The notes under the pieces are model-generated. The model was not told the DNA's origin. It made no database searches and saw only the letters and a program-made list of their open reading frames with translations. Positions 1,634-49,529 of a DNA stretch of 64,000 bases are shown piece after piece. Location of the stretch: IMG/VR virus record IMGVR_UViG_3300044707_000881. One strand, written 5' to 3'. Positions within the stretch are counted from its first letter, which is position 1. Each line of letters begins with the position of its first letter. The position numbers and the translations under genes are program-made. This stretch comes from an uncultured virus (IMG/VR IMGVR_UViG_3300044707_000881) (taxonomy: Duplodnaviria > Heunggongvirae > Uroviricota > Caudoviricetes).

Positions 1634-2287
1634 ATGATTGAACTAATTAAGGCGTTGATCAAAGCGCGGGCGGAGTTTCCGCCCATCGAAAAAGACAAAA
1701 CTAATCCTCATTTTAAAATGAGCTATGCGTCGCTAGATTCAGTCTTGGACGCAGTTACCCCACACCTTTGTAAGAACGGATTAGCAATAGTTCAAATCAT
1801 GGAAAAGGGGGGCATTTTAAAAACCCAATTATTCCATGAATCGGGTGAAGTTCTGACTTCGGAATATGAACTTCCTGATATTCAAGACTCTCAGAAAAAG
1901 GGCGCGGCTCTCACTTATGCCCGTCGTTATTCGGTGTGTGCTTTATTGAGTATTACAGCCGACGAAGACGACGACGCAAATAGCACAAAAACTAACGGCA
2001 ATGGCAAACAATCAGCACTGGCTATTGGCGACACCATTAAACAAGTCAGGGAATTTTTAAAAGTTGATAAAAGCTGGGTTCTAGCTTGGTTGTCCAGTCA
2101 TCAAGTTCCATCAATTAATGATTTAAAAAATGCCGATCAACTCATTAAAGATATGTGCATTGATTGGGCGATTTCCCAAGGGGCTGAAAATTCATCAGCC
2201 CTTGAAAGTTACACGGATAATGTTAAAAAAACAGATTTAACATCGGTTCAAAAATGGCAACAAGTGTTGTTTAGAGGTGGTCAATAA
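1634..2287 (+). CDS. ERF-family ssDNA annealing recombinase
   Basis: KDKTNPHFKMSYASL...GAALTYARRYS...DEDDDAN are ERF motifs; RBS GAGG upstream. Confidence 0.9.
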   Translation: MIELIKALIKARAEFPPIEKDKTNPHFKMSYASLDSVLDAVTPHLCKNGLAIVQIMEKGGILKTQLFHESGEVLTSEYELPDIQDSQKKGAALTYARRYSVCALLSITADEDDDANSTKTNGNGKQSALAIGDTIKQVREFLKVDKSWVLAWLSSHQVPSINDLKNADQLIKDMCIDWAISQGAENSSALESYTDNVKKTDLTSVQKWQQVLFRGGQ

Positions 2288-4507: not shown

Positions 4508-5540
4508 GTAAAATTGCTCCTAAAACAAAATTAAAATGTTCTGGATCTTGCTTGTAAAAATGAGACATCAGTCCGGGATCGCGGAAACGCTCAACCCCCG
4601 TTGAAATAACCTCGGTAGGAGTGCCAGCATTTCCATATATTTTCCCTACGTAAGGGTCTATAAAATTACCTGGGAATGCCATTTCAGTATCTCTGTAATT
4701 TTCTCCAGTAATGTCTTTTAATTTCATAGGCTTGTCGGATGTAGCCCGATCTTCAATGAATTTTCTTGACGCGACGGCTAACTGGCGATTCTCAAATTCC
4801 ATATAATGCGCGTATTCGTGAAAGACCTGGAGGCGATCAATTTTCTCTTCTAATTGTAATTCTCCGTTTGGATTTGCACTGGCTCTGTCTGCTTCACTTG
4901 TTACTTTGTTTATCTTTTTCGCGCCCTTACCACCTGTTACCGCATAAACATTCACTAAAGCATCAAGAGTTATTTTCTTGTTTTCGCCTGTGAGTCCGCG
5001 AGTATCTACCGAATCAGCCCATAATTCTGCATCTTCTCTATCAATTTTATGATGGGCTGCTATTCTCCGCATCGTTTCTCTTGTGGCTGATTCAAATTCT
5101 TTTTGGGCCAGTAAGGTTTTCTCGTCCAATTCTTTTAAACGTTTTTCATCTCGTTTGTAGAAATCTCCGTTTTTTTTAAACTTGTTCTTTCCCATTATTT
5201 CTAAGAAGGCACTCTTTTTTTCGGACAGAGCATCGTCTAGCGACTTTAGTGCTTTCCCCATAGTTTGATCGGAAAACTCCTTCCCTATGCCAATCAAAGC
5301 TCTGTGATCCGCGGAGTCAGCTTTATATGATGTAGGCGTAGTTTTACCAGGTTTGTCGGTGTCTTTCTTGGTAGTTTTACCAGGTTTGTCGGTGTCTTTC
5401 TCGGTAATTTTACCAGGTTGAGCGGAATCCCCGGTTTTTTTTGATTTCAAGCAATCTTTAAGCTTGGAAATGCAGGAATTCCCGCAAGGTGTACCATTCT
5501 TGCAAATTTTTTCCTTAAAATCGTTTAGTCTTTTGCCCAT
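4497..5540 (-). CDS. Zincin-like metallopeptidase-domain protein with N-terminal Cys motif
   Basis: FHEYAH (HExxH) plus downstream EVISTGVE; N-terminal CKNGTPCGNSCISKLKDC; repeated KDTDKPGKTT linker. Confidence 0.6.
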   Translation of the reverse strand: MGKRLNDFKEKICKNGTPCGNSCISKLKDCLKSKKTGDSAQPGKITEKDTDKPGKTTKKDTDKPGKTTPTSYKADSADHRALIGIGKEFSDQTMGKALKSLDDALSEKKSAFLEIMGKNKFKKNGDFYKRDEKRLKELDEKTLLAQKEFESATRETMRRIAAHHKIDREDAELWADSVDTRGLTGENKKITLDALVNVYAVTGGKGAKKINKVTSEADRASANPNGELQLEEKIDRLQVFHEYAHYMEFENRQLAVASRKFIEDRATSDKPMKLKDITGENYRDTEMAFPGNFIDPYVGKIYGNAGTPTEVISTGVERFRDPGLMSHFYKQDPEHFNFVLGAILHEN

Positions 5541-10063: not shown

Positions 10064-10393
10064 ATGACGGTATTAGTAAAAACCCGCGCGATTCACTACG
10101 AGTTACTGACTGATGAGAGCGAGATTATTGGCGGCGTGTTTGCTGTTAATCACCGCCAATATATCGAGATAGTTGATTTATTTGTAAACAGAGAATTTCA
10201 AAATCAGGGACACGGGCGATCGCTCATGCAGATAATTTTCGACAATCACCCAAACAAAATACTCTGTTTACAATGCGGGGCTTTTAGCAATGGGTTAAGT
10301 CAGGGCAATTTAGCGGAATGGTATAAGCGGCTGGGATTTGTGGAGGGTACGCCATTTCATCAAGGGGATGGATGGATGCACAAACCTATTTAG
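10064..10393 (+). CDS. GNAT N-acetyltransferase
   Basis: LFVNREFQNQGHGRSLM (motif A) and WYKRLGF. Confidence 0.88.
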   Translation: MTVLVKTRAIHYELLTDESEIIGGVFAVNHRQYIEIVDLFVNREFQNQGHGRSLMQIIFDNHPNKILCLQCGAFSNGLSQGNLAEWYKRLGFVEGTPFHQGDGWMHKPI

Positions 10394-11276
10394 CCGTCAT
10401 CCTTGCTGTGATTTCCGGGAACAGATCACACAATTCTTTTAACTGAACCGGAGCATAACGCGCCATCCATTTATAGTAGGTACTACATAGAGTTTCCGGT
10501 GTGCAGTACCACAGAGTCCGAGGAAATGGCTTACCTTTTTTCTGCGGTATTTGGTGCATTGAGTAGATAGGACTAACAGGCGATTCATTCTCAACAAGTA
10601 ACGCCCAAACATCCATATCCAGCCAATCACCCAACGGTAAGGCGCGAACCCACGGCAGTAAATCTTTTTTATCCTGATCATGAAATTGCAGCATTCCAGC
10701 ACGGGCAATTTCAAACTGTCTATCCATACCCTCAGCACCACGCGCACCCCACATATACATTACGTTGGGGGTTCCGTCACCATACAAATGATGAAATTGG
10801 TAGATACTTTCATAACTAATTGACGTGCCAACATCGCCCCAATCCCAAAAGTTTAACCGTTGTCCACCTTCACCCTTCAGACCGTAGGAATTACCCCAAT
10901 CAATATACTTTTTAACTATTAGTGGAAACGGGTCATCAGTTAGATATTCTTCATAATAAAACCCGTTACCAAATGAGTTTATATAATCCTCCCACTCTGG
11001 CAAAACGTCATAATGTTGTGGGAGTTCCGCCCCACAGTCAATAATTAAATTACAATAATCAACCTCTGCCAATTCTAAAATTATCGCAGTTGCCATTGAA
11101 TCTTTACCATACCCAAACCATAGACCCGGTATGACATCCTGATTAACTTTAGGGTTGTCATACCAAGACTGCACACGCTCAATGGTTTTGTTTTTGAGTG
11201 CCTGAAATTCATCAGTTTTCGCCCGTTTCGCTGCTTCCAGATATTTCTTCTGTGGCAGTGCTTTCGATATTTCCAT
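10386..11276 (-). CDS. PAPS-reductase/PP-loop family protein
   Basis: FGYGKDS PP-loop, WGARGAEGMDR, PLGDWLDMDVW. Confidence 0.8.
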   Translation of the reverse strand: MEISKALPQKKYLEAAKRAKTDEFQALKNKTIERVQSWYDNPKVNQDVIPGLWFGYGKDSMATAIILELAEVDYCNLIIDCGAELPQHYDVLPEWEDYINSFGNGFYYEEYLTDDPFPLIVKKYIDWGNSYGLKGEGGQRLNFWDWGDVGTSISYESIYQFHHLYGDGTPNVMYMWGARGAEGMDRQFEIARAGMLQFHDQDKKDLLPWVRALPLGDWLDMDVWALLVENESPVSPIYSMHQIPQKKGKPFPRTLWYCTPETLCSTYYKWMARYAPVQLKELCDLFPEITARMTAK

Positions 11277-17755: not shown

Positions 17756-18274
17756 ATGAACAATAATAATTATGGAATGTCTCAAACACGAGACAAATGT
17801 TATGGCGTAGCCGCTTGTCTTACCTATTGGGCTTTCAAGTGCCGTGACAGAAAACGTAGTCCAGCGATGGGTACTAAAACCTGGACTTACTTGGAATCAA
17901 GTATTAGAAACTCTGCTGAAATATCAACTAATTTAGAAGATTATTTGCAGCGACTTTGTGATAAACTTTGTTCACAATTACGCCCAATCGAGTTAACAAA
18001 AATAATTCAGCCAACACAACGGATACTAAGAGTAAATGAAGATGCGACGGAAATCAAGGAACTTCCCGTTGACCAAAATCTTGTATTTATGGGATGGTTG
18101 GATTTAATTGCTGACATTCAACCACACGGATTTACCGAGTGGGATGTACTTGAACTACTGAGAACCAAAGCAGGGATTATTCAAGTAATTTGTAGATTAC
18201 GGTTTGAGGAAGACCGCAGTTTAGGGTTAGATGAACCAGAAGAGTTTATAGAAGTTGAGGTGACAAATGTTTGA
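17756..18274 (+). CDS. Type IV-B small subunit (Cas11-like)
   Basis: Helical 172 aa, first gene of the csf operon, overlaps csf2. Confidence 0.55.
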   Translation: MNNNNYGMSQTRDKCYGVAACLTYWAFKCRDRKRSPAMGTKTWTYLESSIRNSAEISTNLEDYLQRLCDKLCSQLRPIELTKIIQPTQRILRVNEDATEIKELPVDQNLVFMGWLDLIADIQPHGFTEWDVLELLRTKAGIIQVICRLRFEEDRSLGLDEPEEFIEVEVTNV

Positions 18275-19397
18275 TAATTACGATGTTTTTGACCGTGAAA
18301 GATTGACATTGCATTGTGTAATTACGACACAAACGCCACTTTCACATATTGGGGAAGTGTCGGGAAATGTGAGCAATTTAAAAACATTAAAATTACTGGA
18401 TTTTGAAGGTAATCCCAGAAGTGTTTTCACCTATTCTGGAAATGCCTTGAGAAATGGTTTGTTACGGCGTGTAGGTGTAGCTGCGGCGTTAACTGAATTA
18501 GGATTACAGGTAAATCCTGATACACACCATACAATGTTTGCAGGTGGCAGGATTGATGCCGGTACAGCTTCAGATATGGAACTTGATAAAAAGATCCGGG
18601 TTCTAATGCCTTGGTTGTCGGTCTTAGGAACTGCTAAACCTGCTAAAGTGTTTGGTTCTAAAGATGCCCAAATGGTGCAAGGTAGGATTAATGTAGGTTC
18701 TGCTTACTTGGCTTGTTATGAGTCAGCAGAGTACATCTACAATCAGATACCAGCAATATTACCACCGGAAATACAACCCGCTATTCAGAAGCTAATTGAG
18801 GCTAAAAATAAATTATCTTCAGACCCATTCACTCCCACAAAAACTGAAGATTTGGATAATTGGAATCAAGCAAAAAATGACTACTTGCCTTTGATTAGAA
18901 AAGTAATGAAAACATGGTCTGAATATTTAACGGTTGATCAAACTACCCGCAGAGATGCAACTTTAGATCCTAATTTGATTAAATTTCTGCCAACAGAAGT
19001 ACAGGCGCAACTCAAGGGAGATGGTGCAGCTAAAGAGAAAAAATCGGATCAAATGATTGCTTCCGATAGATTAATTATGCCAGGAGCAAAACTATACTCA
19101 AGATGGGATTTGAACTGTACGCAAGTTGAGCAGGGATGGATTTTTGATACTTTATTGAAGTTTGCACAATTCCCGTATTTAGGTGGTAAAGGCAATCGCG
19201 GAAATGGTCGAGTCAGCATGAATTTCTGGTTTAGTTCTGAGTCAGAACGTGGTTTATTGTGGAGTTCTGAAAGTGGTGTAGAGAGCGATAGATTTAACCT
19301 GGCACACGCTAAATATAGAGAATATATCAATCAATATCAACAGTTTTTGAGTGAGGCGAAAACATCAACTGAGTTAAGGAGTTTGTTGGGTGGATAA
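18267..19397 (+). CDS. csf2: Type IV Cas7 RAMP (Csf2)
   Basis: TPLSH...YSGNALRNGLLRR...MFAGG and Gly-rich loop YLGGKGNRGNGRV. Confidence 0.85.
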   Translation: MFDNYDVFDRERLTLHCVITTQTPLSHIGEVSGNVSNLKTLKLLDFEGNPRSVFTYSGNALRNGLLRRVGVAAALTELGLQVNPDTHHTMFAGGRIDAGTASDMELDKKIRVLMPWLSVLGTAKPAKVFGSKDAQMVQGRINVGSAYLACYESAEYIYNQIPAILPPEIQPAIQKLIEAKNKLSSDPFTPTKTEDLDNWNQAKNDYLPLIRKVMKTWSEYLTVDQTTRRDATLDPNLIKFLPTEVQAQLKGDGAAKEKKSDQMIASDRLIMPGAKLYSRWDLNCTQVEQGWIFDTLLKFAQFPYLGGKGNRGNGRVSMNFWFSSESERGLLWSSESGVESDRFNLAHAKYREYINQYQQFLSEAKTSTELRSLLGG

Positions 19398-20079
19398 CTT
19401 AAAAATTACAGCACATTTGGCGACATCTTTGGGTGCTTATGACAACTGGAGTCCATCGCTAGAAGGGATTTTAGTTTATAGGCTTTTAGAACAAAATAAT
19501 CTACTTTCACCTAATCCCACGCCAGATCAAGTAGCAGAAACCAAAGAGTTTATTGAGCAGAATTTACCACTAAAACAAGGTGTCATTAAGTCAGAGAAAT
19601 ATTGGTGCGTGAGTTCACCTTGCTATGTTTTGCAGGGTGAAGCTACAGACAAATATAGAAAACGATGGGATAATCACGAAAACAATTTAGACTGGGGTAA
19701 GCGTAAGCCCAAATTTTTAACAGGTGAAGGGGCGGAAAAATCCTATGATTTACCGCTTTACACAAGGTTAATTAATTCTATTTCTTGGTTTGCTGTAGGC
19801 GATAAAACGGCAATCAAAAATCTTTTGTCGTCTGTTACTCACATTCAGAAAAAGCGTAGTTACGGCAATGGTGAAGTCAGGGAATGGGAAATAGGGGTGA
19901 TTTACGATAATTACCATCTGTGGCGTGATAGTAAATTAATGCGTCCTATCCCTGTTAGATTACTTGATCAAAAAATAGATAATCCTCAGATGGTTTGGGG
20001 GTGGAGAAGTCCCGCTTGGTTAGCGGCAAACAAGGAGTTGTGCTATATGCCAAAGGATAACGTGATTTATGCTAAGTAA
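19390..20079 (+). CDS. csf3: Type IV Cas5 RAMP (Csf3)
   Basis: LKITAHL N-terminus; WFAVGD...THIQKKRSYGNGEVREWEI; MRPIP. Confidence 0.8.
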   Translation: MDNLKITAHLATSLGAYDNWSPSLEGILVYRLLEQNNLLSPNPTPDQVAETKEFIEQNLPLKQGVIKSEKYWCVSSPCYVLQGEATDKYRKRWDNHENNLDWGKRKPKFLTGEGAEKSYDLPLYTRLINSISWFAVGDKTAIKNLLSSVTHIQKKRSYGNGEVREWEIGVIYDNYHLWRDSKLMRPIPVRLLDQKIDNPQMVWGWRSPAWLAANKELCYMPKDNVIYAK

Positions 20080-20815
20080 CGGATCTGGCGTTCAATATCC
20101 CTGGTTAAAAAAGAAAATAACCAGGGCAAAAGACTTAATTAAAACATGGTTAGAGCAATGCGATTATCAGGTTTACGCTAGTGTGTCAGGTGGTAAAGAT
20201 AGCCTAGTGATGTCACATTTGATTAGGCAAGTTTACTCAGATTGTCCATTGGTCTGGGTAAATCAGGGAATGTTTGCTGAATGGGATGATTGCATTGAAT
20301 TATTAGAGTTTTTGAAAACTCAGGGGTGGAATATTATTGAACTTTGTCCAGTGCGTGATTTATGGCATTTGTATCTGGATTATGGCGTTCCCCTTGAAGG
20401 GACGATGGACACAAAAGCCGATAAATTGATAAATCAAAAACTGATTTATGACCCGCTTAATGAATACCAAGAATTGAATAATGTTAAGGGTTATGCGTGG
20501 GGAATACGTAAGCAAGAAAGCAAAAACCGCGCATTTTATCTCAACAAATATGGTGAAGTGCATACGCTCAAAAACGGGTTGATTTGTTGCTCACCCGTGG
20601 CATTTTGGACTACTCAAAATATCTGGGAATATATTGATATGCACTCGTTAAAATACCCTGCTATTTATGATGTTGATAGAATGACAGTTAGGAATGGATG
20701 CCCAATCGGTACAACAGGTGCTAACTGGGGAAGATTAGCAGAGTTAAGAAAGCATTACCCAGATATTTATAATCAATTTGCTACTAAATTTCCACAGGTA
20801 TCAACCTATGTCTAA
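20069..20815 (+). CDS. CysH-like PAPS reductase (type IV-B associated)
   Basis: SVSGGKDS, WGIRKQESKNR, PVAFWTTQNIWEYI. Confidence 0.88.
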   Translation: MLSNGSGVQYPWLKKKITRAKDLIKTWLEQCDYQVYASVSGGKDSLVMSHLIRQVYSDCPLVWVNQGMFAEWDDCIELLEFLKTQGWNIIELCPVRDLWHLYLDYGVPLEGTMDTKADKLINQKLIYDPLNEYQELNNVKGYAWGIRKQESKNRAFYLNKYGEVHTLKNGLICCSPVAFWTTQNIWEYIDMHSLKYPAIYDVDRMTVRNGCPIGTTGANWGRLAELRKHYPDIYNQFATKFPQVSTYV

Positions 20816-21560
20816 TTGCTACCTTTGCGCTAAACCCGGATCTAATGCTTTGGAATTATCCAATACATTCACGATGCACTCGTCAGCTAAATGTCCAGAG
20901 TCTAAAGTGCTATGCGATCGCTGTCACTCTACAATTTCCGGTAATCAAAAGCAGCTTTGGTACTGGAATGAAGGTAAAAATAAATGGTCAAAGCTGTGGG
21001 GACGTTCTTTGTCCAGGGTTTATCAGGGTGATAAGCTAATTGCGCCTGTCGTTGAAGGTGAATATACAGAAGGCAAGGATACTTTTTCAATAGTTAAAAA
21101 CTTGCTGACTAGGGTGGGAATTAGGCAATACTTGTTAAATCCACCTGAACCGCCTTTTACTATAGCCATAGCAGAATCGGGGCAAAAACATATTATCCCT
21201 TGGGCGTTAGAAGGTCAAAACAGAGATTTATTCCCTGTGCAATTTGAACTCGACACTATTTATATTGACAATAGATTTAGAGAATATTTGGAAATTTACG
21301 AACAATTGATGGGATTAGGTTTTAGTAAGTCTGAAATTGATTCTGGAGATTATCGAAGCGATCGCCTAATGAAAGTTTTTGATCAATATGGGGAACTTGA
21401 GGAACGGATAGCGCGTATTAGGGGAACGAGATTAATGCAATTAATTAGCTATGTTGCCCAAGTGCAAGACGCGCCGCCAATTACGGAAGTAGTGCAAATT
21501 CCCGTAATGCCTGTTTCACCAAAAACACTTGAGAAGCCACTGCAATTATCTTTGTTTTAG
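20808..21560 (+). CDS. csf1: Type IV large subunit (Csf1, Cas8-like Zn-finger protein)
   Basis: CYLC...TFT...C...CDRC; LLNPPEPPF...SGQKH; C-terminus QLSLF. Confidence 0.8.
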   Translation: MSNCYLCAKPGSNALELSNTFTMHSSAKCPESKVLCDRCHSTISGNQKQLWYWNEGKNKWSKLWGRSLSRVYQGDKLIAPVVEGEYTEGKDTFSIVKNLLTRVGIRQYLLNPPEPPFTIAIAESGQKHIIPWALEGQNRDLFPVQFELDTIYIDNRFREYLEIYEQLMGLGFSKSEIDSGDYRSDRLMKVFDQYGELEERIARIRGTRLMQLISYVAQVQDAPPITEVVQIPVMPVSPKTLEKPLQLSLF

Positions 21561-25780: not shown

Positions 25781-26002
25781 AGTTCACTAAGTGGTTAAGT
25801 AAAGTGGACTAACCATTGAAACCACCGGAATACCGCAAATATTCCTGCGTGGTATGGTTTAAATAATTATATCATGTTTTCAATAGTCTTATTAATTTTT
25901 CAATAACTTAGGATACAATATTATCCAGTCGCGTGATGGTGTTGGTAGCACCGATTCACCACTGGCTGTAGGTCTTGTACACCCACATTGATATTATTCC
26001 CA

Positions 26003-27871
26003 ATGAAAACTATTAAAATCAAGGTCAAACTTCTTGCTGAACAGGCGCAATCATGCGATCGCTACCTAGAAGAATTGACATGGCTATGGAATCAGGTATT
26101 GGCTAATCAATTGCATAACCATTGCATCACCTGGTACAACTGGGCTGGTAAGTTGAGCGCAGATTTAGCTAAGGCGACGGAAAAGTTAGAGAAGCTAAAA
26201 CCGGAACAACAGCAGCTTGTTAGGAACTACTACCGCAGCAAAGACAAGCCAAAACTCAACAAAAAAGAACAGGAATTAGTTGCCAAATTTGATATATTTT
26301 CCCGGTGGTTGCCGTTTGACTTAGAAAATATTATTCCCGTACCTTTGCGAGTTGGCAACAGTGGCTACGAGGGCTTATCGTGCCAGATTGCTACAGGCGG
26401 AAGTTACTGGAAACGGGACGATAATTTTAATATTCCCATTAAAACCAAAAAGGGGATTATTCACGTCAAAGGGTCTAAATTAGTTAAGGGTGATTACCCC
26501 TGGAAACGGATAGAGATAATCCCCCACAAATACAAAACTTTCCCCAGTGGTAAGTTTGAGGGGAGGGAATTAATAGATTTAATGAAGTTTGATAATTTGA
26601 ACGGGTTAAACGGGTTAAGAGCGATGCAAAACCTACCAGACTTAACCGTTTCATCTCACTACGTCGGAGGCTTGTTAGGGTTTTTCAAACAGTCATGGTT
26701 AGCATTTTTAGACCCCAAAAGGATAAACAGCAGGAAGCCAAAATTCAAAAAAGATGCTGATAAGATTAGCACTTTATTTAATAAGCAATGTCCACCAAAT
26801 AAGATAGACATAAAGAATAATTCAGTTGAAATTACTGGATTTGGCAATTTAATCGTTACTGATAGAAGTTGGGGGGAAAGACTGAACCTAGATAGCAGTC
26901 TTCCTCGGGCGTATATGCTAACCAAAAAAGCATCTGGCTACTATATCAATATTGTCCTTGCTCACCCATTGCAAGAAGAAAAAGCGGTTTTAACAAAGAA
27001 ATTACCCAAGGTTAAAAAGGAGCTTGGAGAAGACAGCCAAGAGTACGAAAATATTAAGTCTAAAATCAAGTTTATTGAACAGCAAATCAAGGATTCGTTA
27101 ATCGTAGTGGGAAAGAATTTAAGCGTAGGGATTGACCCTGGAGTACAGGCTATTGTGGCGACAGATCACGGGGCGTTATTCCTCCCAAATCTAAGCAGGG
27201 AAAGAGTGTCAATCCATATAGAGGAACTACAATCAAGGCTTGATAACCTTGAATTAATTAATGATAAAAAGTGGAAAGATTCAGGAAGCAAAGGTGCTAG
27301 ACCTAAGACAAAAAACGAGATTAAGATACAAGATAAAATTACCAGATTACATGAACGTGGGGCTAATTCTTCTAATGCCTTTAATCATAAAATGTCAACT
27401 AGATTAAGCAGGACTTACGAGCATATAGCATGGGAGGATACCCAGTTAACCAATCTCCTAAAACAAACAGAAGCTAAAGCATTGCCTGAAGGGGTGGGAT
27501 ATGCTCACAACGGCGCGTCTGCTAAACGGGGTTTAAATTGGATTATGAGACAAAGATGCTTGGGTGATTTAAAAGCTAAAACTAAGCAAAAAGTTGAGAA
27601 CAGAGGCGGTAGTTTTCATGAACCACCTGCTAACTACAGTTCTCAACTATGCCATTGTTGTCATCAGAAAGGTGAGCGATTATCACAGTATGAGTTTGTC
27701 TGCAAAAACTCTGAATGTGAGTTATTTGAACAGGTGCAACAAGCTGACACCAATGCGGCTAGGAATCACAAACATAATAGTAGTTTTGAACTAGGAGAAG
27801 TCAAATATCACAACACTAGATTGGTTTACCAAAAACCCAAGAGATTTAAAAAGAAACGCTTGACAAAGTAG
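26003..27871 (+). CDS. TnpB-derived compact type V (Cas12-like) RNA-guided nuclease
   Basis: MKTIKIK..L TnpB-like N-terminus; RuvC-I VGIDPG, RuvC-II IAWED, Zn finger CHCC..C...C, RuvC-III ADTNAARN; adjacent array. Confidence 0.88.
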   Translation: MKTIKIKVKLLAEQAQSCDRYLEELTWLWNQVLANQLHNHCITWYNWAGKLSADLAKATEKLEKLKPEQQQLVRNYYRSKDKPKLNKKEQELVAKFDIFSRWLPFDLENIIPVPLRVGNSGYEGLSCQIATGGSYWKRDDNFNIPIKTKKGIIHVKGSKLVKGDYPWKRIEIIPHKYKTFPSGKFEGRELIDLMKFDNLNGLNGLRAMQNLPDLTVSSHYVGGLLGFFKQSWLAFLDPKRINSRKPKFKKDADKISTLFNKQCPPNKIDIKNNSVEITGFGNLIVTDRSWGERLNLDSSLPRAYMLTKKASGYYINIVLAHPLQEEKAVLTKKLPKVKKELGEDSQEYENIKSKIKFIEQQIKDSLIVVGKNLSVGIDPGVQAIVATDHGALFLPNLSRERVSIHIEELQSRLDNLELINDKKWKDSGSKGARPKTKNEIKIQDKITRLHERGANSSNAFNHKMSTRLSRTYEHIAWEDTQLTNLLKQTEAKALPEGVGYAHNGASAKRGLNWIMRQRCLGDLKAKTKQKVENRGGSFHEPPANYSSQLCHCCHQKGERLSQYEFVCKNSECELFEQVQQADTNAARNHKHNSSFELGEVKYHNTRLVYQKPKRFKKKRLTK

Positions 27872-27888
27872 ATGGTTTTAGTTATTAT
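27860..27888 (+). promoter_or_regulatory. Promoter for tracrRNA-like RNA
   Basis: TTGACA-17-TATTAT overlapping the effector stop codon. Confidence 0.7.
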
Positions 27889-27894
27889 CAATTT

Positions 27895-28040
27895 ACCGCA
27901 GTTTGGACGGGATGACTGGTTCTGTCAGTCTATGACTTGATGATTTTACGATCAAAAAGTAAGGGAGATGGTGACTACTCCCATAGACCAGCCGGAACTA
28001 TGGCTGGCAATCCTCAGAAGGGATTAATCATTTTGCAATC
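27895..28040 (+). ncRNA. tracrRNA-like RNA
   Basis: Three hairpins followed by an anti-repeat at 28008-28038 complementary to the CRISPR repeat. Confidence 0.75.
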
Positions 28041-28165
28041 ATCGAAGCGGCGTGGCTAAAACAAACCCGCGCGCAAATCCAGAACCTAGACAAGCGAAGG
28101 GATTAGAGCTATCTTTGCAGAATATCAAAAGGGATTTAAGCGGCTGCAATGGACTTTTTGGATTC

Positions 28166-29082
28166 CTTGCAGGATGACTAATCCCTTCTGAGGGATTGAA
28201 ACAATGATACTGGTAACACGTTCTCTTGGTTGTTTACCTTGCAGGATGACTAATCCCTTCTGAGGGATTGAAACCAGCCTGGAGAGGGAATTTCAGCAAG
28301 AATTAGAACTTGCAGGATGACTAATCCCTTCTGAGGGATTGAAACTCCTTGCCAGAAATTAAGGAACAGTGCGAGATGATGACTAGCTTGCAGGATGACT
28401 AATCCCTTCTGAGGGATTGAAACTATCAGAATATTGATTAATAGATGTAGTGTAATGTGCTTGCAGGATGACTAATCCCTTCTGAGGGATTGAAACGACA
28501 GTATCCTTCATTGTGCTATTGGAAATAATGAGCTTGCAGGATGACTAATCCCTTCTGAGGGATTGAAACTAACCATTTGTTCTAGCAGTTGGTTTTCTGC
28601 TATGTTCTTGCAGGATGACTAATCCCTTCTGAGGGATTGAAACAACTTCCAAGAGGGCGCGGAGGTCAAGTCCAAACTTGCACTTGCAGGATGACTAATC
28701 CCTTCTGAGGGATTGAAACCACCAAAGGCAAGAATTAGCACAAGAATTTGTACCTTGCAGGATGACTAATCCCTTCTGAGGGATTGAAACTGTTTCCCGT
28801 CTCCCAGTTTGGCGAGTGCATCGGAATTGCTTGCAGGATGACTAATCCCTTCTGAGGGATTGAAACAGATCCTTTTGTGGGATTGATAGCAGCCCGTTGT
28901 ACTTGCAGGATGACTAATCCCTTCTGAGGGATTGAAACTTGACTTAATTCTATTCCCCCAAAAGATGACATTACTTGCAGGATGACTAATCCCTTCTGAG
29001 GGATTGAAACGCGCTAATTCTTTCACTGCAAATACTCCTATTGATCTTGCAGGATGACTAATCCCTTCTGAGGGATTGAAAC
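28166..29082 (+). CRISPR. CRISPR array: 13 identical 37-bp repeats, 12 spacers of 34-41 bp
   Basis: Repeat CTTGCAGGATGACTAATCCCTTCTGAGGGATTGAAAC at 28166, 28238, 28309, 28387, 28460, 28533, 28607, 28683, 28754, 28830, 28902, 28974, 29046. Confidence 0.99.
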
Positions 29083-35668: not shown

Positions 35669-35674
35669 TTTCCT

Positions 35675-35737
35675 GATCTTGACTTTGATCTCGACTTTGA
35701 TCTTGACTTTGATCTTGACTTTGATCTTGGCTTTGAT
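35675..35737. repeat. 12-bp tandem repeat (GATCTTGACTTT) about 5 copies
   Basis: Read directly; encodes QSQD repeats in ORF 35661-35936 (-). Confidence 0.9.
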
Positions 35738-39139: not shown

Positions 39140-39352
39140 TTAGGCGATCGCCGCCTGGATAATTTTATGCGCCTGATTGCCAGACATACCGTCTGGCAAC
39201 TGAATTCCAACCATGTTGACCGCAGGTGCGGTCATGTCATCGGAAAGTCCGAAATTCCAGTCATAGTCCGGTGCTTGTGTCAGTGTTGCGCCGGGAATGG
39301 CTGCCAACACTTTTTCAGCATTTTCTCTTTTAACTCTGATTACCTTCATCAA
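39140..39352 (-). CDS. Small cargo protein of RHH cassette 1
   Basis: Shares its 5'UTR with the gene starting at 41401. Confidence 0.6.
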   Translation of the reverse strand: MMKVIRVKRENAEKVLAAIPGATLTQAPDYDWNFGLSDDMTAPAVNMVGIQLPDGMSGNQAHKIIQAAIA

Positions 39353-39423
39353 CTTAACCAGGGGATTGTGAGTGGTGGCTTGGTTGTTTTCCCCCTGCCT
39401 CCTTATTTATAAATGTACACCAT

Positions 39424-39639
39424 CTATTCTAGCTTGTCAAGTGATTTTGAAAAATTTTCTTGAAACCACTCCAAAGACTTACTAGATAAGACTTCCACGA
39501 AATTAACTAAGTCTGGATTGATAGTTTGCTTATAATTGCGACTATATCCTGATGCTATTAATTTTCTACACAGTTGTTCCTTGACATCCTCAGTGCATCT
39601 AACTTTTATCTCTGTTGTCCGGTTTAATGATGGTCGCAT
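39424..39639 (-). CDS. RHH-like small regulator (paralog 1)
   Basis: MRPSLNRTTEIKVRCT...; paralog of 41467-41682. Confidence 0.7.
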   Translation of the reverse strand: MRPSLNRTTEIKVRCTEDVKEQLCRKLIASGYSRNYKQTINPDLVNFVEVLSSKSLEWFQENFSKSLDKLE

Positions 39640-40339
39640 GATTCCATCTGTTAGTTGTACACCATTAACTATAACAGAGATTTTTGTCAAGGGGTAGTCA
39701 TGCGAATGAGGAAATATCCAAGAATCCCCATAGAATCAGGACTTGGAGTATCAATCACTGCAACTATCTATTGATTCTCTATGGCTATAGTTAAATGCTT
39801 ATGCTAAAATTAAAACACCTCCCCAAATGCACTCCGGGAAGGTGTTTCGTTTACTTGTAAAAACTTGAATTATGAATATCCTAGCATCCCCTGTGGATAG
39901 CGTGGGGTAATAATGACTGGTGCTTGAATTACACCCCACAGGATACCTTTAGACATCTACTTTCCATTTTTTACACCAGTCTTGGAACTCCTGAGACTGC
40001 ATACTATCTTGCAGTCTGTAAGGCAGGAGATATTTTAACTTCTCCTCAGTGGCGCGGACTTTTTCACCACACTTTTTGGCTAGTGATTGGGCATCTCTCA
40101 ATCCTTCTTTTGTGAAGGGGAAATAGCGATTATACTCATCACCGTCTTCTTTTGAGAACTCAAATACCAGATAGCATTTAACTAATGTCTCTTGCAGAGA
40201 TCGGAATTTATTTCTATGCCACTCTTGCGGTCTTTCTAATGCCTTGTTTTTCATCGTTTTCTTGTGGGGTATGTGACAGCTTCCCACGACTACCAGGTGG
40301 TAGTTTCGGACGGTAGCCAGCCGTCCATCATCAGGTGGG

Positions 40340-41401
40340 CTAGACTGTTGCCAGCCATTTCTCGAAAGGCTTAATAATACCTTTTTTGGCTTGTTGTGCT
40401 TTTTTGTAAATCTCGTAATTGCGCTCTTGTTGTATCTGCGCTTTTTTGGCTTCTTCTTTAGCCAGCCTTTCAGAACTTTTATCATCAGCATAGACTTTAA
40501 AAGCTTTTGCTCTTTCAAGAGCTTCTTGTGTAGATATAACAATCGCGTCTACCTTCTTATCTTCGTCAAATTTATAGATATATTTATCTACACCATCTGA
40601 TAGTTGCTCGTAGGATACTGCACCCTTCCGACATTCAAAAACTGCATTGGCTACTGGCCACATACAGATATTGATGTAGCTTTCATATTCCCGTAGCTCA
40701 GGATACAAGCTATAGAAATATTCTTTTAGGTCAGGATATGCCGCTTTTTTAGAAGCTAGTGGGTGTTTAGGTACTGCTTTAGTAGCTTTCAATTCCCAGT
40801 GTTCTACCCAATTTTGGAACACTTTTTGATCGCGGTTGATCAATTGTTGAGAAGCTTTCCAGTTGTCAGCGATCTCAACACCTAGAAGTTTTAATGCTTC
40901 CCGTTCGCTATATACAGGGTGTCTCCAAAAAGAAATTACTTCTGTTGTTGTACCTGTTTGAGCTACAAATACTTCTTGGAAGACTTGCTTCCATTCACCA
41001 GCAGCAATAGAAAATTCGATTGCTTTCTGAGTTTCTAGCCGAGTTGCATACTCAGTTTTTTGCGCTGCCGTTAGCGCTGGCAGTTCAATATTAAAGGGAA
41101 ATTCCTTTCCATCTTTGTCCAGAAGGATGACACCTTCTGAATCATAAGAGGATTCAACCTCAAAATATTTTCCTTCGGTTAGAAGGCTTCCGTTCTTATA
41201 AACACCGGGTTCTCTATCAGAATCAATTTCTACTAATTCATATCCTTTGTAAGTAGTTTCCATTTGTTTTACCTCTGTGGATTCAAGTTTCCAATCAATT
41301 TTTAATAATTCATCCATCCATTTCTGGATGTTTTGCTTGCCACCCACACGGGTGATTAAGTTGATTAATGTTTGTTGTCTAGCCTGTAAATTTTTCATCA
41401 A
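40340..41401 (-). CDS. Cargo hypothetical protein of RHH cassette 2
   Basis: 353-aa ORF. Confidence 0.65.
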   Translation of the reverse strand: MMKNLQARQQTLINLITRVGGKQNIQKWMDELLKIDWKLESTEVKQMETTYKGYELVEIDSDREPGVYKNGSLLTEGKYFEVESSYDSEGVILLDKDGKEFPFNIELPALTAAQKTEYATRLETQKAIEFSIAAGEWKQVFQEVFVAQTGTTTEVISFWRHPVYSEREALKLLGVEIADNWKASQQLINRDQKVFQNWVEHWELKATKAVPKHPLASKKAAYPDLKEYFYSLYPELREYESYINICMWPVANAVFECRKGAVSYEQLSDGVDKYIYKFDEDKKVDAIVISTQEALERAKAFKVYADDKSSERLAKEEAKKAQIQQERNYEIYKKAQQAKKGIIKPFEKWLATV

Positions 41402-41466
41402 CTTAACCAGGGGCTTGTGAGTGGTGCTTGTCTTCCCCCTCTCTCCATATTTTAGTTGTACCCCAA

Positions 41467-41682
41467 CTATTTTTGATTGTCAAGATTTTTTTCAAAGTTT
41501 TTTTCAAACCAACCCAAAGGCTTATCCGCTAAGGCTTCTAGGAAGTCTACAAAGTTTGGGTTTATGTTACCGTCCTTAGTACGTTTGTACCCGACAGATA
41601 TTAGTTTTCTCGCTAGCTGTTCCTTGACTTTTTTGGTACATCTGGCTTTTATCTCTGTTGTGCGGTTAAGTGATGGACGCAT
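41467..41682 (-). CDS. RHH-like small regulator (paralog 2)
   Basis: MRPSLNRTTEIKARCT... Confidence 0.7.
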   Translation of the reverse strand: MRPSLNRTTEIKARCTKKVKEQLARKLISVGYKRTKDGNINPNFVDFLEALADKPLGWFEKNFEKNLDNQK

Positions 41683-41758
41683 GGCTTTATCCTTTATAGT
41701 TGTACACCATTAACTATAGCAGACGATTTTGTCAATGGTTGTCATGCGATTGAGGAAA

Positions 41759-42436
41759 TTAACTATAAGTATTCAACCCAGGCGCACCCCCAAACGGCAA
41801 GTCCGCGTAAGAACCAAACCGAGTTTCACACGCTGTCAAGGTTTTGGCGCACACATCCAACGCCGGATTATCTGTGGCCACATTATTTAAGGTGAACCCG
41901 CCCCCCAAATACCCACACTCGGCGGAACGATACCGCCATGAGCATGACCGCAGTAACGGACGGGCTGGCAATGTCACGCCCTCAACGTCAAACGACGATC
42001 CGAGTCGGAATTGTACAGCGAGATAAGTTTCTGACACTAACTGCTCAATCACGAATATTTGCTGTGGCAGTTCTTTGATTGCCGCGCCTTCATTCTCACC
42101 ACCATCTAAAAATTGCCGTTGAGTAAGGCGGCGCTTTACCGTCGTTCCTTCTAGTCGGTAATTGGGCGAGGTTTTGCATTGTAGCAGCCACTCGCTGACC
42201 ACGCGCCCGATATTGGAAACTGTTAGTTGTGGCGTGGGAATTGGTCCTTGTCCGATAAGATCAAAACCTTCAGATTCACAGCCAATGGCGGCGTATTCCT
42301 GCCCCTCGAAGGACACGCCGGGATAATTGCAGATGTACAGGGTTTCTGTTGGTGCGGTCAAGTTGTAATTAGATATCTCGAATAACTCAATGGGTGAGTC
42401 GGGATTGAGGGATAGGAGATTGCTGATTATTGGCAT
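41759..42436 (-). CDS. Lambda gpL-like minor tail protein
   Basis: IELFE, P.LTVSN, C-terminal Cys cluster CSWRYRSAECGY...C.K....C..RFG...PFGG.PG. Confidence 0.9.
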   Translation of the reverse strand: MPIISNLLSLNPDSPIELFEISNYNLTAPTETLYICNYPGVSFEGQEYAAIGCESEGFDLIGQGPIPTPQLTVSNIGRVVSEWLLQCKTSPNYRLEGTTVKRRLTQRQFLDGGENEGAAIKELPQQIFVIEQLVSETYLAVQFRLGSSFDVEGVTLPARPLLRSCSWRYRSAECGYLGGGFTLNNVATDNPALDVCAKTLTACETRFGSYADLPFGGAPGLNTYS

Positions 42437-44705: not shown

Positions 44706-44775
44706 GCAATAAAAAAACCCGCCATTCCTGACGGGTTTCGGCAAACGATCATCATCTACACAAATTCATACGACC

Positions 44776-44882
44776 GAGTCTCTTTGTTCATTACGCAAAG
44801 CTGTCCTAAACTACCTTGATGAAATCCCTGCTCAGAACGTTGATTAGAGTCTCTTTGTTCATTACGCAAAGCTGTCCTAAAC
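44776..44882. repeat. 36-bp direct repeat flanking a 35-bp unique insert (mini-array-like)
   Basis: GAGTCTCTTTGTTCATTACGCAAAGCTGTCCTAAAC at 44776-44811 and 44847-44882. Confidence 0.9.
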
Positions 44883-45126
44883 AGCCTAGCGATCTTGCCC
44901 ATTCACGACGCTCAACACCAGCTTGTCCAGGATTTTCATAGCACCCCTGATCAAGATGCCCAACAACTTCATCCCCTTTTAGAATCCACCATTGGCGGTG
45001 GTAGGGAATGGAGCCGGTTGCAGTTCCCCACAACTCAAAGCCGTTTTTTAAGGATAGATCAAGGTTGTACTTTGCGGCGTTGGCGCGAACCTCTGCTGCT
45101 TTAGAGTATTGATTTAATTTTGTCAT
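44806..45126 (-). CDS. Hypothetical protein with C-terminus altered by the insertion
   Basis: RBS GGAGG; 3' end lies within the duplication. Confidence 0.6.
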   Translation of the reverse strand: MTKLNQYSKAAEVRANAAKYNLDLSLKNGFELWGTATGSIPYHRQWWILKGDEVVGHLDQGCYENPGQAGVERREWARSLGCLGQLCVMNKETLINVLSRDFIKVV

Positions 45127-45196
45127 GTTTCTCTTCCTCCAAATTAATAGTTATGCTGCAAAAAGTTCTAGCTGCTGATGATTTTGTGAACTATGA

Positions 45197-45502
45197 TTAA
45201 TTACTTCGATGACATAAGATTTTGCCATCACCAATCACTGATTCTTCAACAACAGTCCAACCATTTCTATCAAAAGTCTCTGTTAAAATCTGAATATTAA
45301 CAGGCTTGCGCCGGACATCACCTAAATCTTCGTCATCATATTCAGGCTGGTCAACGCCGTATCTTGCATCTGGCAGCCTTGGGAAACTGCCATCTTCTGA
45401 TTGCTTAACGATGTCATAAGACTCATGTAAGTCACCACTTGCGCGATAAATATCAATTAAACAAATACCCATTTCAATTTTGTCAGATTTAATTAATTCC
45501 AT
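45197..45502 (-). CDS. Cargo hypothetical protein of RHH cassette 3
   Basis: 101-aa ORF downstream of an embedded promoter. Confidence 0.6.
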   Translation of the reverse strand: MELIKSDKIEMGICLIDIYRASGDLHESYDIVKQSEDGSFPRLPDARYGVDQPEYDDEDLGDVRRKPVNIQILTETFDRNGWTVVEESVIGDGKILCHRSN

Positions 45503-45564
45503 TTTATTTGCCTTTTGCCTTTTGCTTTTTTGATTGCCTCTCTACATTTATAACTGTATAGCAC

Positions 45565-45780
45565 TTATTCTGGAATGTCAACCCCTTTTTCAAAAATTTT
45601 TTCAAAAAACTCCAAAGGCATACTAGATAAGGCTTTGATACATTGTGTGAACCCAGCCTCCACTTCTCCCTTCCTGCGATAGACAAATCCGGCCGCTATC
45701 AACTTACGGCTTAATCTCTCCTTCTCACCAGGGGAAAGCCTAATCAAAATAGTAGCTCCATTAATTTTCGGGCGTGCCAT
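45565..45780 (-). CDS. RHH-like small regulator (paralog 3)
   Basis: MARPKING..I.IRL...KERLSRKLI..G...ALS..PLEFFEK.F. Confidence 0.65.
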   Translation of the reverse strand: MARPKINGATILIRLSPGEKERLSRKLIAAGFVYRRKGEVEAGFTQCIKALSSMPLEFFEKIFEKGVDIPE

Positions 45781-46193
45781 ACAGCCTTTTTTAAAACAAT
45801 ACCTTAATTGTATAGCACAATCAGAAAAAATCTATCAATCAAGAGTCTCACGCGAATGAGGAAACCATCAACGGAAGTCTATTATTTTACTGTTTACCAT
45901 CTACCTGAATCTATCTGAGGACTATATGCTTTTCATTTATATCAAACGAGAGCAGTTATTTTATTTTCTCTTTTAATTTAATTCCTCTTTTGATCTCAAA
46001 TTCTTCTCGTTTGCAATAGAAGTAAAAGCATATAGTCGTAAAGTACCGAAAACCGAGTGTAGGGGCGGTTTTACGGTGGAGATATTAGAGTATTAATAAA
46101 ATTATTGATTTACCCATAGCCTTGGGTTAAAACAAAATTAGCCGCTCAAGTTTGATAGCAGGAGCGACTAATTTATTTAATCACATTGAAATT

Positions 46194-47264: not shown

Positions 47265-49529
47265 ATGCCGAAAAAACAATTTAAAGGATTTGGTGGTAGT
47301 GGGGGCCGTAAAAAATCCCCACCCAAGCCGACAGAAACAGCTATATCAGGGCGTTCCGTGTCTAACGCTGCAATGCTGGGGATTGTGTCAGAAGGGGAAA
47401 TTGAGGGACTGGTTAACGGGCTGCAATCCGTCTATTTCGATGAAACTCCAGTGCAAAATGCCGATGGTTCGCTCAACTTCCAGGATTTTGGCTGGGACTG
47501 GCGACCCGGAACACAGGCACAGGGAAGAATGCCGGGTTTTGGGGATGAGGTCACTAGCGAAACCAGTGTTGCTACTGAGGTTAAGAACAACCTTCCCATC
47601 ACTCGCACCATCGCTAATGGAAATTTAGATATTATTAGAATCCGCCTGGGCGTGGTGCTTCAGGAATACCCCCCAGACGGCGGGGTTTTGGGCTTAAATG
47701 TAACTTTTAGGATTTACCTAAAACAAGGTGCGGGGGCGTTCTATCTAGCTTATGAGGGCAACTTAGGCGGACGCTTTGCAACCCTTACAGAATTTGAATA
47801 TGCTTTTGCGGTCAATAATGTCGGTGGCACAGTAACAGATTTTAGCGTCAGAGTTGAGCGAGTAACGCCCCAAGATACCGACTCTACAAGGTATCAGCGA
47901 GTTTTAACATGGCGCTCATTTACTGAAGTCACGGAAACTAAACTCAAATACCCTAATAGCGCGATGTTTGGGTTCAGATTTGATGCTGCACAATTCCAAG
48001 ACACGCCGCAAATATCCCTAAGGTTGGCAGGGCGGAAAATTCAGATACCATCAAATGCCACCCCAACAGGTACAAGGGGACTGACGTATAGCGGAACTTG
48101 GAACGGAACATTTTACACCCCATCAGTGGCAGTGGCAGATCCGGCGTGGATACTCTATGACCTGATCACTAACACCCGCTATGGACTTGGCAGGTATATT
48201 AATCAATCCCAAATTGATAAATGGGCATTGTATGAGATTAGCCAATATTGCAATGAGTACGTCCCCAATGGATATGGAGGTACGGAACATCGTTTTCAAT
48301 GCCACTTATTACTAGAGGGCAAAGAGGAAGCGTATAAGGTTATTCAACAGTTTCTATCAGTGTTTCGTGGTTTCAGCTATTGGATGAATGGAGCGATCGC
48401 CTTTGTTGCTGACAAGCCCGGATCTCCAGTAGCACAATTTACTCAAGCCGATGTAGAAGATGGGATGTTTTCATATACCCGCACAGGACTAAAAACTAGA
48501 AATACTATAGCTTTGGTAACTTGGGTGAACCCTGACGACTTTTACCGTCGGTCAGTGGAAACCATTGATGATCCCAGTGGAATAGCTAAATATGGCGTTC
48601 GGGAAATAGAAATGTCTGCTTTTGCTTGTGTGTCAAGAGGTCAAGCGCGACGGGCTGGCTATGCTGCCTTGCTCACTGACAGACTAGAACAGGAAACCGT
48701 ATCTTTCCGATGTAGAGCCTATGGTGCTTATACCAAGCCGGGTGACATTATCAGGGTGATGGACTCAAAAAGGGCTGATATCCGATACGGAGGATTGATT
48801 GCAGCAGCGACTACCACAGAAATTACCTTAGATCATGAAGTAGAGATTTTATCAGGGGAGACTTACACCCTCACGGTAATGCTTGCTGATGGGACAGTAC
48901 AGGAAAAATCCGTTACCAATTCGCCTGGACTAACTACAACGTTAACCCTTGCATCCGCTTTATCATCAGTGCCACCACCGGAAAGTAACTGGATACTGGC
49001 ATCAACCACCGTACGGCCGCAGTTATTCCGGGTTTTAAATCGCGTACCGAGTTCCGGTAGCACGGAAATGATGCACGAAATTACGGCTATTGAATACAAC
49101 CCTGCCAAATATTCTCAGATTGAAAATGGCTGGAGTCTTGAGCCATTGCCACCCCGCCGCAATCCTCCCGTTGTTGTGTCAGTTCCCAGGAATATCACCC
49201 TCAGTTACCGCGCGATTGACCTATTTGATCTCAATGCAGTCTGGGATTTTCCGCTTTTGGGAAGTGAGCGAGATCCCTATATCACAGGCTACACCATTGA
49301 ATTGCGGCTTGGCGATGACGATTTGTGGGGGAATAGCAGATTTGAAACAACTGCCTCAACGCAGTTTGCGAACATATCCGCAGGGAAATATTACGTCAGA
49401 GTCGCCGCAGTTGATCTCAATGGCAGGTCATCGCGTTGGGTAGTTTCTGACCCGATACTTCTAACGAAATACAACTGGGTAGGTATTTTCACTTCTCGAT
49501 ATGCTTCTGTATTTGCAATGGAATTTTAA
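47265..49529 (+). CDS. Lambda gpJ-like tail tip/host specificity protein
   Basis: SEGEIEG, YPNSA, DPAW.LYDL....RYG, W.LY.I..YC.E.VP.G.GG.E.RF; C-terminal Fn3-like domain. Confidence 0.92.
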   Translation: MPKKQFKGFGGSGGRKKSPPKPTETAISGRSVSNAAMLGIVSEGEIEGLVNGLQSVYFDETPVQNADGSLNFQDFGWDWRPGTQAQGRMPGFGDEVTSETSVATEVKNNLPITRTIANGNLDIIRIRLGVVLQEYPPDGGVLGLNVTFRIYLKQGAGAFYLAYEGNLGGRFATLTEFEYAFAVNNVGGTVTDFSVRVERVTPQDTDSTRYQRVLTWRSFTEVTETKLKYPNSAMFGFRFDAAQFQDTPQISLRLAGRKIQIPSNATPTGTRGLTYSGTWNGTFYTPSVAVADPAWILYDLITNTRYGLGRYINQSQIDKWALYEISQYCNEYVPNGYGGTEHRFQCHLLLEGKEEAYKVIQQFLSVFRGFSYWMNGAIAFVADKPGSPVAQFTQADVEDGMFSYTRTGLKTRNTIALVTWVNPDDFYRRSVETIDDPSGIAKYGVREIEMSAFACVSRGQARRAGYAALLTDRLEQETVSFRCRAYGAYTKPGDIIRVMDSKRADIRYGGLIAAATTTEITLDHEVEILSGETYTLTVMLADGTVQEKSVTNSPGLTTTLTLASALSSVPPPESNWILASTTVRPQLFRVLNRVPSSGSTEMMHEITAIEYNPAKYSQIENGWSLEPLPPRRNPPVVVSVPRNITLSYRAIDLFDLNAVWDFPLLGSERDPYITGYTIELRLGDDDLWGNSRFETTASTQFANISAGKYYVRVAAVDLNGRSSRWVVSDPILLTKYNWVGIFTSRYASVFAMEF

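Follow-up and report, generated by a model that had tools for sequence, protein, structure and literature searches.

Off-target spacer integration, giving so-called 'neo-CRISPR' loci, was reportedly described in the type I-E system of E. coli by Nivala, Shipman and Church in 2018. This work is cited for off-target integration in the accessible parts of PMC7054753, PMC6607411, PMC6698737 and bioRxiv 10.1101/148544, and integration at repeat-like sites outside arrays has been seen in vitro, according to the part of the source at hand (PMC8047081). The kind of event is already known, mainly from laboratory experiments, and natural cases are thinly documented in print; in the literature that we could search, i.e. 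titles and abstracts, with most subscription papers outside reach, no report of such a unit inside a phage genome was found. Type I-D systems have a GTN flank and a modal spacer length of 35 nt, as given in the accessible part of PMC10212523, and strains of A. flos-aquae carry I-D and III-B systems according to the corresponding part of PMC6293099.

In this paper, we analyse a stretch of 64,000 nucleotides from an uncultured virus (IMG/VR IMGVR_UViG_3300044707_000881; Caudoviricetes), hereafter the window. A sequence-only reading had pointed out a repeat-insert-repeat unit at 44776-44882, and had proposed that it arose by the off-target integration of a CRISPR spacer into a phage gene. By analogy, the unit resembles the integrations of Nivala et al. 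2018 and agrees with them in the core features that can be tested.

Results

The phage, its host and its CRISPR content

The window is part of a lambda-like phage, with genes for the terminase, tape measure, minor tail L, tail assembly protein and tail-tip J. Among the contigs recorded for the 106-aa protein affected by the unit, the longest has 84,482 bp, and therefore about 20 kb of the phage may be unseen. The host is inferred to be a member of the Nostocaceae, probably Dolichospermum or a close relative, because related proteins have been recorded from Dolichospermum metagenome bins, array spacers of the phage match a plasmid of Anabaena sp. 90, and Nostocaceae genomes hold spacers against the phage. 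The window carries the following elements related to CRISPR and recombination:

25988-29082, plus strand: phage-borne V-U2 (C2c8-like) effector and array of 13 repeats, without cas1; 37-bp repeat, spacers of 34-41 bp
17756-21560, plus strand: type IV-B-like operon (small subunit, csf2, csf3, cysH, csf1) without an array; csf matches below curated cut-offs
1634-2287, plus strand: ERF-family single-strand annealing recombinase, a candidate for the later junction conversion and for the rival explanation by recombination

The family matches of the V-U2-like effector, like those of the operon, are below curated cut-offs. None of the 76 window ORFs scanned against Pfam matched the Cas1, Cas2, Cas4 or Cas6 families, and cas1 was found in none of five sibling phage records, all five incomplete. 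One cyanophage has an array-less type IV-B-like csf-cysH operon together with an actively growing array served by a V-U2-like effector, with no cas1 in the part seen. In some siblings (L071:12200-13300, L065), the same V-U2-like effector is followed by two tandem 37-bp repeat types, which differ from one another and are separated by a second leader-like stretch. Furthermore, a second PAPS-reductase-like gene, a weak match below the cut-off, lies at 10386-11276, apart from the csf operon, and short tandem repeats with units of 12 bp and 33 bp occur within small ORFs (35674-35737 and 5338-5403).

Geometry of the unit

The unit consists of three parts:

44776-44811, plus strand: first copy of the duplicated 36-bp target, which is ordinary accessory-gene coding DNA with its AAAC end on the plus strand; single copy in relatives
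44812-44846, plus strand: insert of 35 bp, spacer-like; matches best (28/35) the tail-tip J of sibling phages, in the same strand and frame and from insert base 1
44847-44882, plus strand: second copy of the duplicated 36 bp, which remains in frame with the minus-strand gene

A direct check of the sequence bears out the exact 36-bp direct repeats around a unique 35-bp insert: the two copies are identical and lie 71 bp apart, and the duplication is exactly 36 bp long because the flanking bases differ on both sides. The insert is present once in the window at up to three mismatches (a match in 0/100 shuffles), and the next best site in the window reaches 24/35, so the insert is not local sequence; nor is it an ancestral gene end, as the C-termini of the homologues described below demonstrate. 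Apart from the real array, the unit is the only perfect repeat pair with such spacing in the window, and no comparable non-array unit was found in 35 sibling-phage loci (467 kb, partly redundant).

The sequence-only reading had also held that the sizes match the array of the window. This stands for the insert, whose 35 bp fall within 34-41 bp and equal the modal spacer length of the sibling phage arrays (11 of 45 spacers), but the duplication falls one base below the 37-bp repeat of the phage itself and has the length of the 36-bp repeats in host-family genomes. Insert bases 3-5 are identical to flank bases 3-5, which constitutes a microhomology. The CTTTG/CAAAG hairpin noticed in the unit is at chance level (z -0.28; 74/200 shuffles fold equally well).

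The interrupted gene and its empty allele

The unit occupies the 3' end of an ORF on the minus strand. This ORF belongs to a cassette slot that extends from the terminator of the tail assembly gene to about 45530-45916 and whose content differs among close siblings. Its surroundings are as follows:

44806-45126, minus strand: interrupted accessory gene, 106 aa, with the last six ancestral residues replaced by 13 new residues read from the insert
44756-44775, minus strand: RSYEFV-stop, the ancestral end of the gene, orphaned beyond the new stop codon; compared with P0001, P0012 and P0014-P0016
44714-44739, minus strand: intrinsic-terminator-like hairpin closing the accessory cassette and bordering the variable slot
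45553-45581, minus strand: sigma-70-like promoter upstream of the cassette, a 10/12 consensus match only; two found vs 2.6 expected in shuffles

The accessory gene has no match in Pfam, NCBIfam or PHROG, and its protein-atlas matches (0.76 at most) are uninformative; no relatives were found in genome contigs, in 389 Nostocaceae genomes (0/389) or among phage records. Searches and clustering gave 28 related proteins (11 search matches plus cluster members). The C-terminus is uninterrupted in 24 of the 28, five of which end exactly in MNKETRSYEFV. The tail derived from the insert is present in two others, P0013 and the window's own protein, and the remaining two stop short of the unit. In addition, a 551-nt contig of the RNA run X15 joins 44775 to 44847 and skips exactly 71 bp, with 36 ambiguous letters. 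Because 24/28 proteins are uninterrupted and the X15 contig lacks the 71 bp, the single-copy (empty) form is the ancestral one. Removing the insert and one copy had been said to restore a natural gene end, and that end is indeed the one possessed by the relatives; the uninserted allele, which was to be looked for in relatives or reads, thus exists in relatives and in an RNA-run contig. In the window allele six conserved residues have been lost and thirteen gained, a change which the two homologues that are devoid of this region altogether suggest to be tolerated.

Several observations concern the variability of this region. In close siblings, unrelated reverse-strand cassettes follow the same terminator between the tail assembly gene and J (hypervariable slot, window 44739-45916; L002-L008, L016), and in run X2 other cassettes follow the cassette terminator at depths of 86 and 6.7, compared with about 27-31 for the unit-bearing cassette. 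Small regulator-like genes, repeated with near-identical upstream stretches (39345-39715, 41394-41759, 45529-45780), mark several accessory modules. One allele of the accessory gene (L001:3440-3510) ends in LGCR, where it meets a 34-bp stretch that recurs elsewhere in L001; this is a separate truncation made by recombination.

The filled allele in assembly graphs

Four of 21 listed runs were examined, all as contigs, and these include one (X15) of the six RNA runs. In X2, the 36-nt repeat unitig stands at a depth of 58.3, compared with 28.4 for the 95-nt insert unitig and 27.3 and 31.2 for the flanks. Such depths would be expected with the insert in essentially every copy of the cassette, and an insert unitig of this length needs k-mers across each junction. 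X2 may be the source of the window, and X7 belongs to a different study. The repeat unitig of X7 is 41 nt long and its insert unitig has two other letters (a 41+30 allele), so that the filled form is real in two studies. We read the X7 variant as one in which the first two insert bases have probably been changed to those of the flank. This reading predicts a protein ending in FIKAV, and P0013 ends in FIKAV, compared with FIKVV in the window's protein, which itself is recorded on four contigs. Run X5 is uninformative on the allele, its contigs stopping at 44808 and resuming at 44876.

The empty allele and the two filled alleles all occur in lake populations. Only two filled alleles were seen, and both carry the same single insert, i.e. 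spacer turnover is not seen between them. The earlier description of a snapshot of array birth is therefore overstated, although the integration itself is supported.

Origin of the insert

In the window and 19 sibling loci, the best match of the insert is to the 5' part of J, with 28/35 in L006, 27/35 in L007 and L055, and 26/35 in L009. The match is in register from base 1, and the first 13 insert bases match the L006 J exactly. The J gene of the phage itself is located as follows:

47265-49529, plus strand: tail-tip J gene; insert-homologous site at 47433-47467, only 21/35

By this measure the phage's own J is not the donor, because its homologous site matches at only 21/35. No exact donor was found in the viral contigs (four scans), the metagenomes (one scan), the 389 Nostocaceae genomes or by BLAST of plasmid and phage records. 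The search for a donor with a flanking PAM, which had been proposed earlier, hence yielded a best homologue, the sibling J at 28/35, with a PAM-compatible flank, but not an exact source.

How far such a match can be trusted was addressed with controls. Shuffled inserts reached 27 in 0/1000 cases in 547 kb and 28 in 1/10,000 cases in 1.06 Mb, and natural 35-mers reached at least 28 in 5/3000 cases in a control that included true array targets. The insert differs from the L006 J at six of 33 coding bases compared, five of these differences changing amino acids; among J alleles, about half of the differences at the insert-homologous site are non-synonymous (147 vs 149). In addition, the insert would give Ile at a position where 0/134 J sequences have Ile. 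Because of these amino acid changes and the Ile unseen in 134 J sequences, the J match may be due to chance, and a 25/35 match of the insert to an unrelated gene in 2/389 genomes indicates that such look-alikes occur. Nevertheless, we consider it likely that the J gene of a sibling phage supplied the insert. If so, the original parse is fixed as 36+35, because the first insert codon encodes Tyr or Phe in 80/80 close J sequences.

Other candidate donors were set aside as chance matches: L020/L021 (23/35), L022 (a GC-rich contig), L057 (25/35), L051/L052 (25/35, in another frame of an unrelated gene), and the BLAST matches to the insert at E values of 1-5.

A probable signature of the adaptation machinery

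Flanks were oriented by reading the unit so that it ends in AAAC. In this orientation, the J site is preceded by GTC (L006, L055) or ATC (L007, L009) in the four best J alleles. The background frequency of such a purine-T-N flank is 13%, and that of an AAAC end is 0.7%. The likeness of the AAAC end to real repeats, claimed earlier, was confirmed: it is common to all eight host and phage repeats compared, each of which ends in GAAAC.

Real spacers provide the reference for these flanks. Three of the 45 sibling-array spacers (window 28720-28753; the L069 and L071 arrays; L074) have protospacers on plasmid pANA03 of Anabaena sp. 90, with the flanks GTT, GTT and GTA (GTN in 3/3). Among 206 host spacers examined, 13 match the phage set at 83% or more. 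Twelve of the host protospacers belong to 37-bp-type repeats and have the flanks GTN (six), ATN (three), GCG (two) and ACC (one), i.e. purine-T-N in 9/12; one belongs to a 36-bp repeat and has the flank TAA. Host-family arrays have repeats of both 36 and 37 bp, and cas1 is present in 5/5 host-family genomes tested, three of which hold spacers against the phage group. The subtype labels of the host arrays and the cas4/cas2 labels are our own reading of the sequences, not tool results. One protospacer is located next to the unit:

45258-45292, minus strand: protospacer in a neighbouring cassette gene, 35/35 to a spacer of a cas4-cas1-cas2-linked array in the Nostocaceae genome G077

The site matched by this spacer (L106, G077:C110:2264-2298) is flanked by ATT, where the PAM is expected, and by GTC at the opposite end, so that the spacer may be a flipped one. 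A single host array in another genome (L126, L136; G317:C2) has at least eight spacers against the phage group, mostly against the tail region.

The sibling phage arrays differ by spacer blocks and in length (13 vs 20 repeats), and therefore an integrase supplied in trans acts on these genomes. A phage-borne array without cas1 indicates that the host integrase acts on phage DNA, and the sibling arrays target a host plasmid and seem to be fed by a host type I-D-like adaptation system.

The unit itself shares 7-17 of 36 bases with real repeats; the best of the eight, 17/36, is reached by 0.4% of the window's 36-mers, uncorrected for eight tries, and identity to the phage's own 37-bp array repeat is 11/36. 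No exact copy of the I-D leader motif GCCAAA, as given in the accessible part of PMC6607411, is found in the 100 bp upstream of the unit. The length of the duplication fits the 36-bp host repeats and the flank fits the 37-bp systems; either enzyme class, a 36-bp-repeat type or a 37-bp type with a one-base slip, would be a candidate.

Discussion

The unit is most probably the scar of one off-target spacer integration by host Cas1-Cas2 during co-infection, and is now neutral. In such an event, a Nostocaceae host cell would have carried the window phage together with a sibling phage, and the host adaptation complex would have cut a 35-bp prespacer from the J gene of the sibling, beside a purine-T-N flank. 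The prespacer ends would have been joined to opposite strands 36 bp apart in the accessory gene, at an AAAC-ending site like those of the host repeats, and repair would have duplicated the 36 bp. The gene would have gained a 13-residue tail for six residues, probably at little cost, and the allele would have spread with the cassette; in one lineage, later recombination would have changed the first two insert bases to those of the flank. Off-target Cas1-Cas2 integration into a phage gene, as the sequence-only reading had proposed, is thus supported by an empty allele that exists, a filled allele that is real, an insert that is non-local and a PAM-compatible J match. Against it stand a duplication of 36 bp instead of the 37 bp of the arrays that show the purine-T-N flank, the little repeat likeness beyond AAAC, the fact that this is a single event, and the microhomology at insert bases 3-5, which suits recombination.

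We regard as improbable that microhomology-mediated template switching or ERF-driven illegitimate recombination made the unit, its CRISPR-like sizes being coincidental. A nascent strand would have copied the unit plus five bases, jumped at the 3-base microhomology, copied 30 foreign bases and returned 41 bases back. The phage does encode an ERF recombinase, the slot is hypervariable, and the 41+30 allele that such a path predicts exists, both as the 41-nt repeat unitig of X7 and in the FIKAV end of P0013. However, the two bases peculiar to the window allele match J, so that 36+35 is likelier the original form; there is no microhomology where the strand returns; and the two lengths, the AAAC end (0.7%) and the flank (13%) would all have to be coincidences.

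A unit made by the host enzymes, as preferred here, could now serve as a guide against the J genes of siblings. Its transcript would come from the side of the tail operon, and would be taken up by a host complex, by the V-U2 effector or by the array-less IV-B complex of the phage. The insert is much nearer to the siblings' J than to the phage's own (28 vs 21 of 35), the allele has the same depth as its flanks in X2, and two variants of it persist. A IV-B-like operon is present in the phage, and in the accessible part of PMC7937560 a IV-B complex assembled on heterogeneous non-CRISPR RNA; moreover, virus-borne mini-arrays target related viruses, as far as the corresponding part of PMC6858448 goes. 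Yet the 11/36 identity to the phage repeat, a hairpin not above shuffles and seven mismatches to the best known target argue against such a role. The predicted transcript of the cassette is antisense to the would-be crRNA, with a hairpin just upstream on the sense side, and the sole RNA contig examined (X15) carries the empty allele. No immunity resulted from off-target units in E. coli (Nivala 2018, cited in the accessible part of PMC6607411). A functional mini-array, the other possibility raised earlier, is judged unlikely given how little the unit has in common with real repeats, and with neither a significant hairpin nor a leader motif found we do not uphold it; the unit is probably non-functional and inert. 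It is very unlikely that the phage, by borrowing the host integrase, gained a non-array spacer against its relatives that is used as a guide (e.g. by type IV-B) for interviral exclusion. If this were true, the unit would represent a working array at its birth, and a candidate for the RNA partner that type IV-B has in nature.

An assembly artefact or chimera is scarcely credible. The window is a metagenomic assembly, no examined contig spans the whole stretch, and X2 is possibly its source; but the unitig lengths and depths in X2, with the repeat at twice the depth of the insert and flanks, fit two real copies, X7 and P0013 give an independent variant, and the protein is on four contigs, which disposes of an objection that the sequence-only reading had itself raised. 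Finally, the capture of 123 bp from a genuine host array at the gene end, comprising repeat, spacer and repeat together with 15 bases of a further spacer, suggested by L001 and P0005 ending at LGCR without the whole unit, has a negligible probability and was rejected, since 24/28 homologues encode the unit once as protein, which makes L001 a derived truncation, and since the unit was not found as a real CRISPR repeat in viral contigs, metagenomes or, at up to three mismatches, any of the 389 Nostocaceae genomes (0/389), in scans from which records very close to the window may have been excluded.

Scarring by the host integrase, if correct, presents a before state, an after state and a later variant, and the donor is plausible. 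The case suggests an ability of host adaptation enzymes to insert sequence into the DNA of infecting phages at non-array sites, by which a co-infection is recorded and a phage protein altered, and it offers one plausible route to the cas1-less arrays carried by phages. It also provides a defined natural 36-bp site for testing which cyanobacterial integrase misfires, and why.

Comparison with known systems

The minimal effector and array at 25988-29082 are comparable to the type V-U2 locus of cyanophage vB_AphaS-CL131, whose host family is the same, as described in the accessible part of PMC6293099. The unit is not part of this array, from which it lies 15.7 kb away and with which it shares only the AAAC end. 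Naive adaptation by the type I-D system of Synechocystis, in the parts of PMC10212523 and PMC6607411 at hand, is similar in its modal 35-nt spacer, its GTN flank and the possibility of low-level leaderless integration, whereas the I-D-like repeats here are 37 bp long and the 36-bp duplication has the length of the other host repeat class.

The mini-arrays of SPV1 and SPV2 (PMC6858448, in its accessible part) are likewise one-spacer viral units, with a spacer nearer to a related virus than to the carrier and a host integrase acting in trans. Known virus-borne mini-arrays differ in having host-like repeats, and those of SPV1 and SPV2 also in their leaders and spacer turnover; the 'repeat' of the phage unit is coding DNA that has been duplicated, its insert is single, and no leader was found.

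The closest likeness is to the neo-CRISPR loci of E. coli, as far as these are described in the sources seen in part. In both, ordinary DNA outside an array is present as repeat-sized copies around a single insert of spacer size, the target existed beforehand in one copy, and immunity is probably not conferred. Unlike the E. coli loci, which arose under overexpression, the phage unit is natural, lies in a phage genome and has the cyanobacterial geometry of 36-37 bp; its donor is apparently a sibling phage, and its empty and two filled alleles are all found in lake populations.
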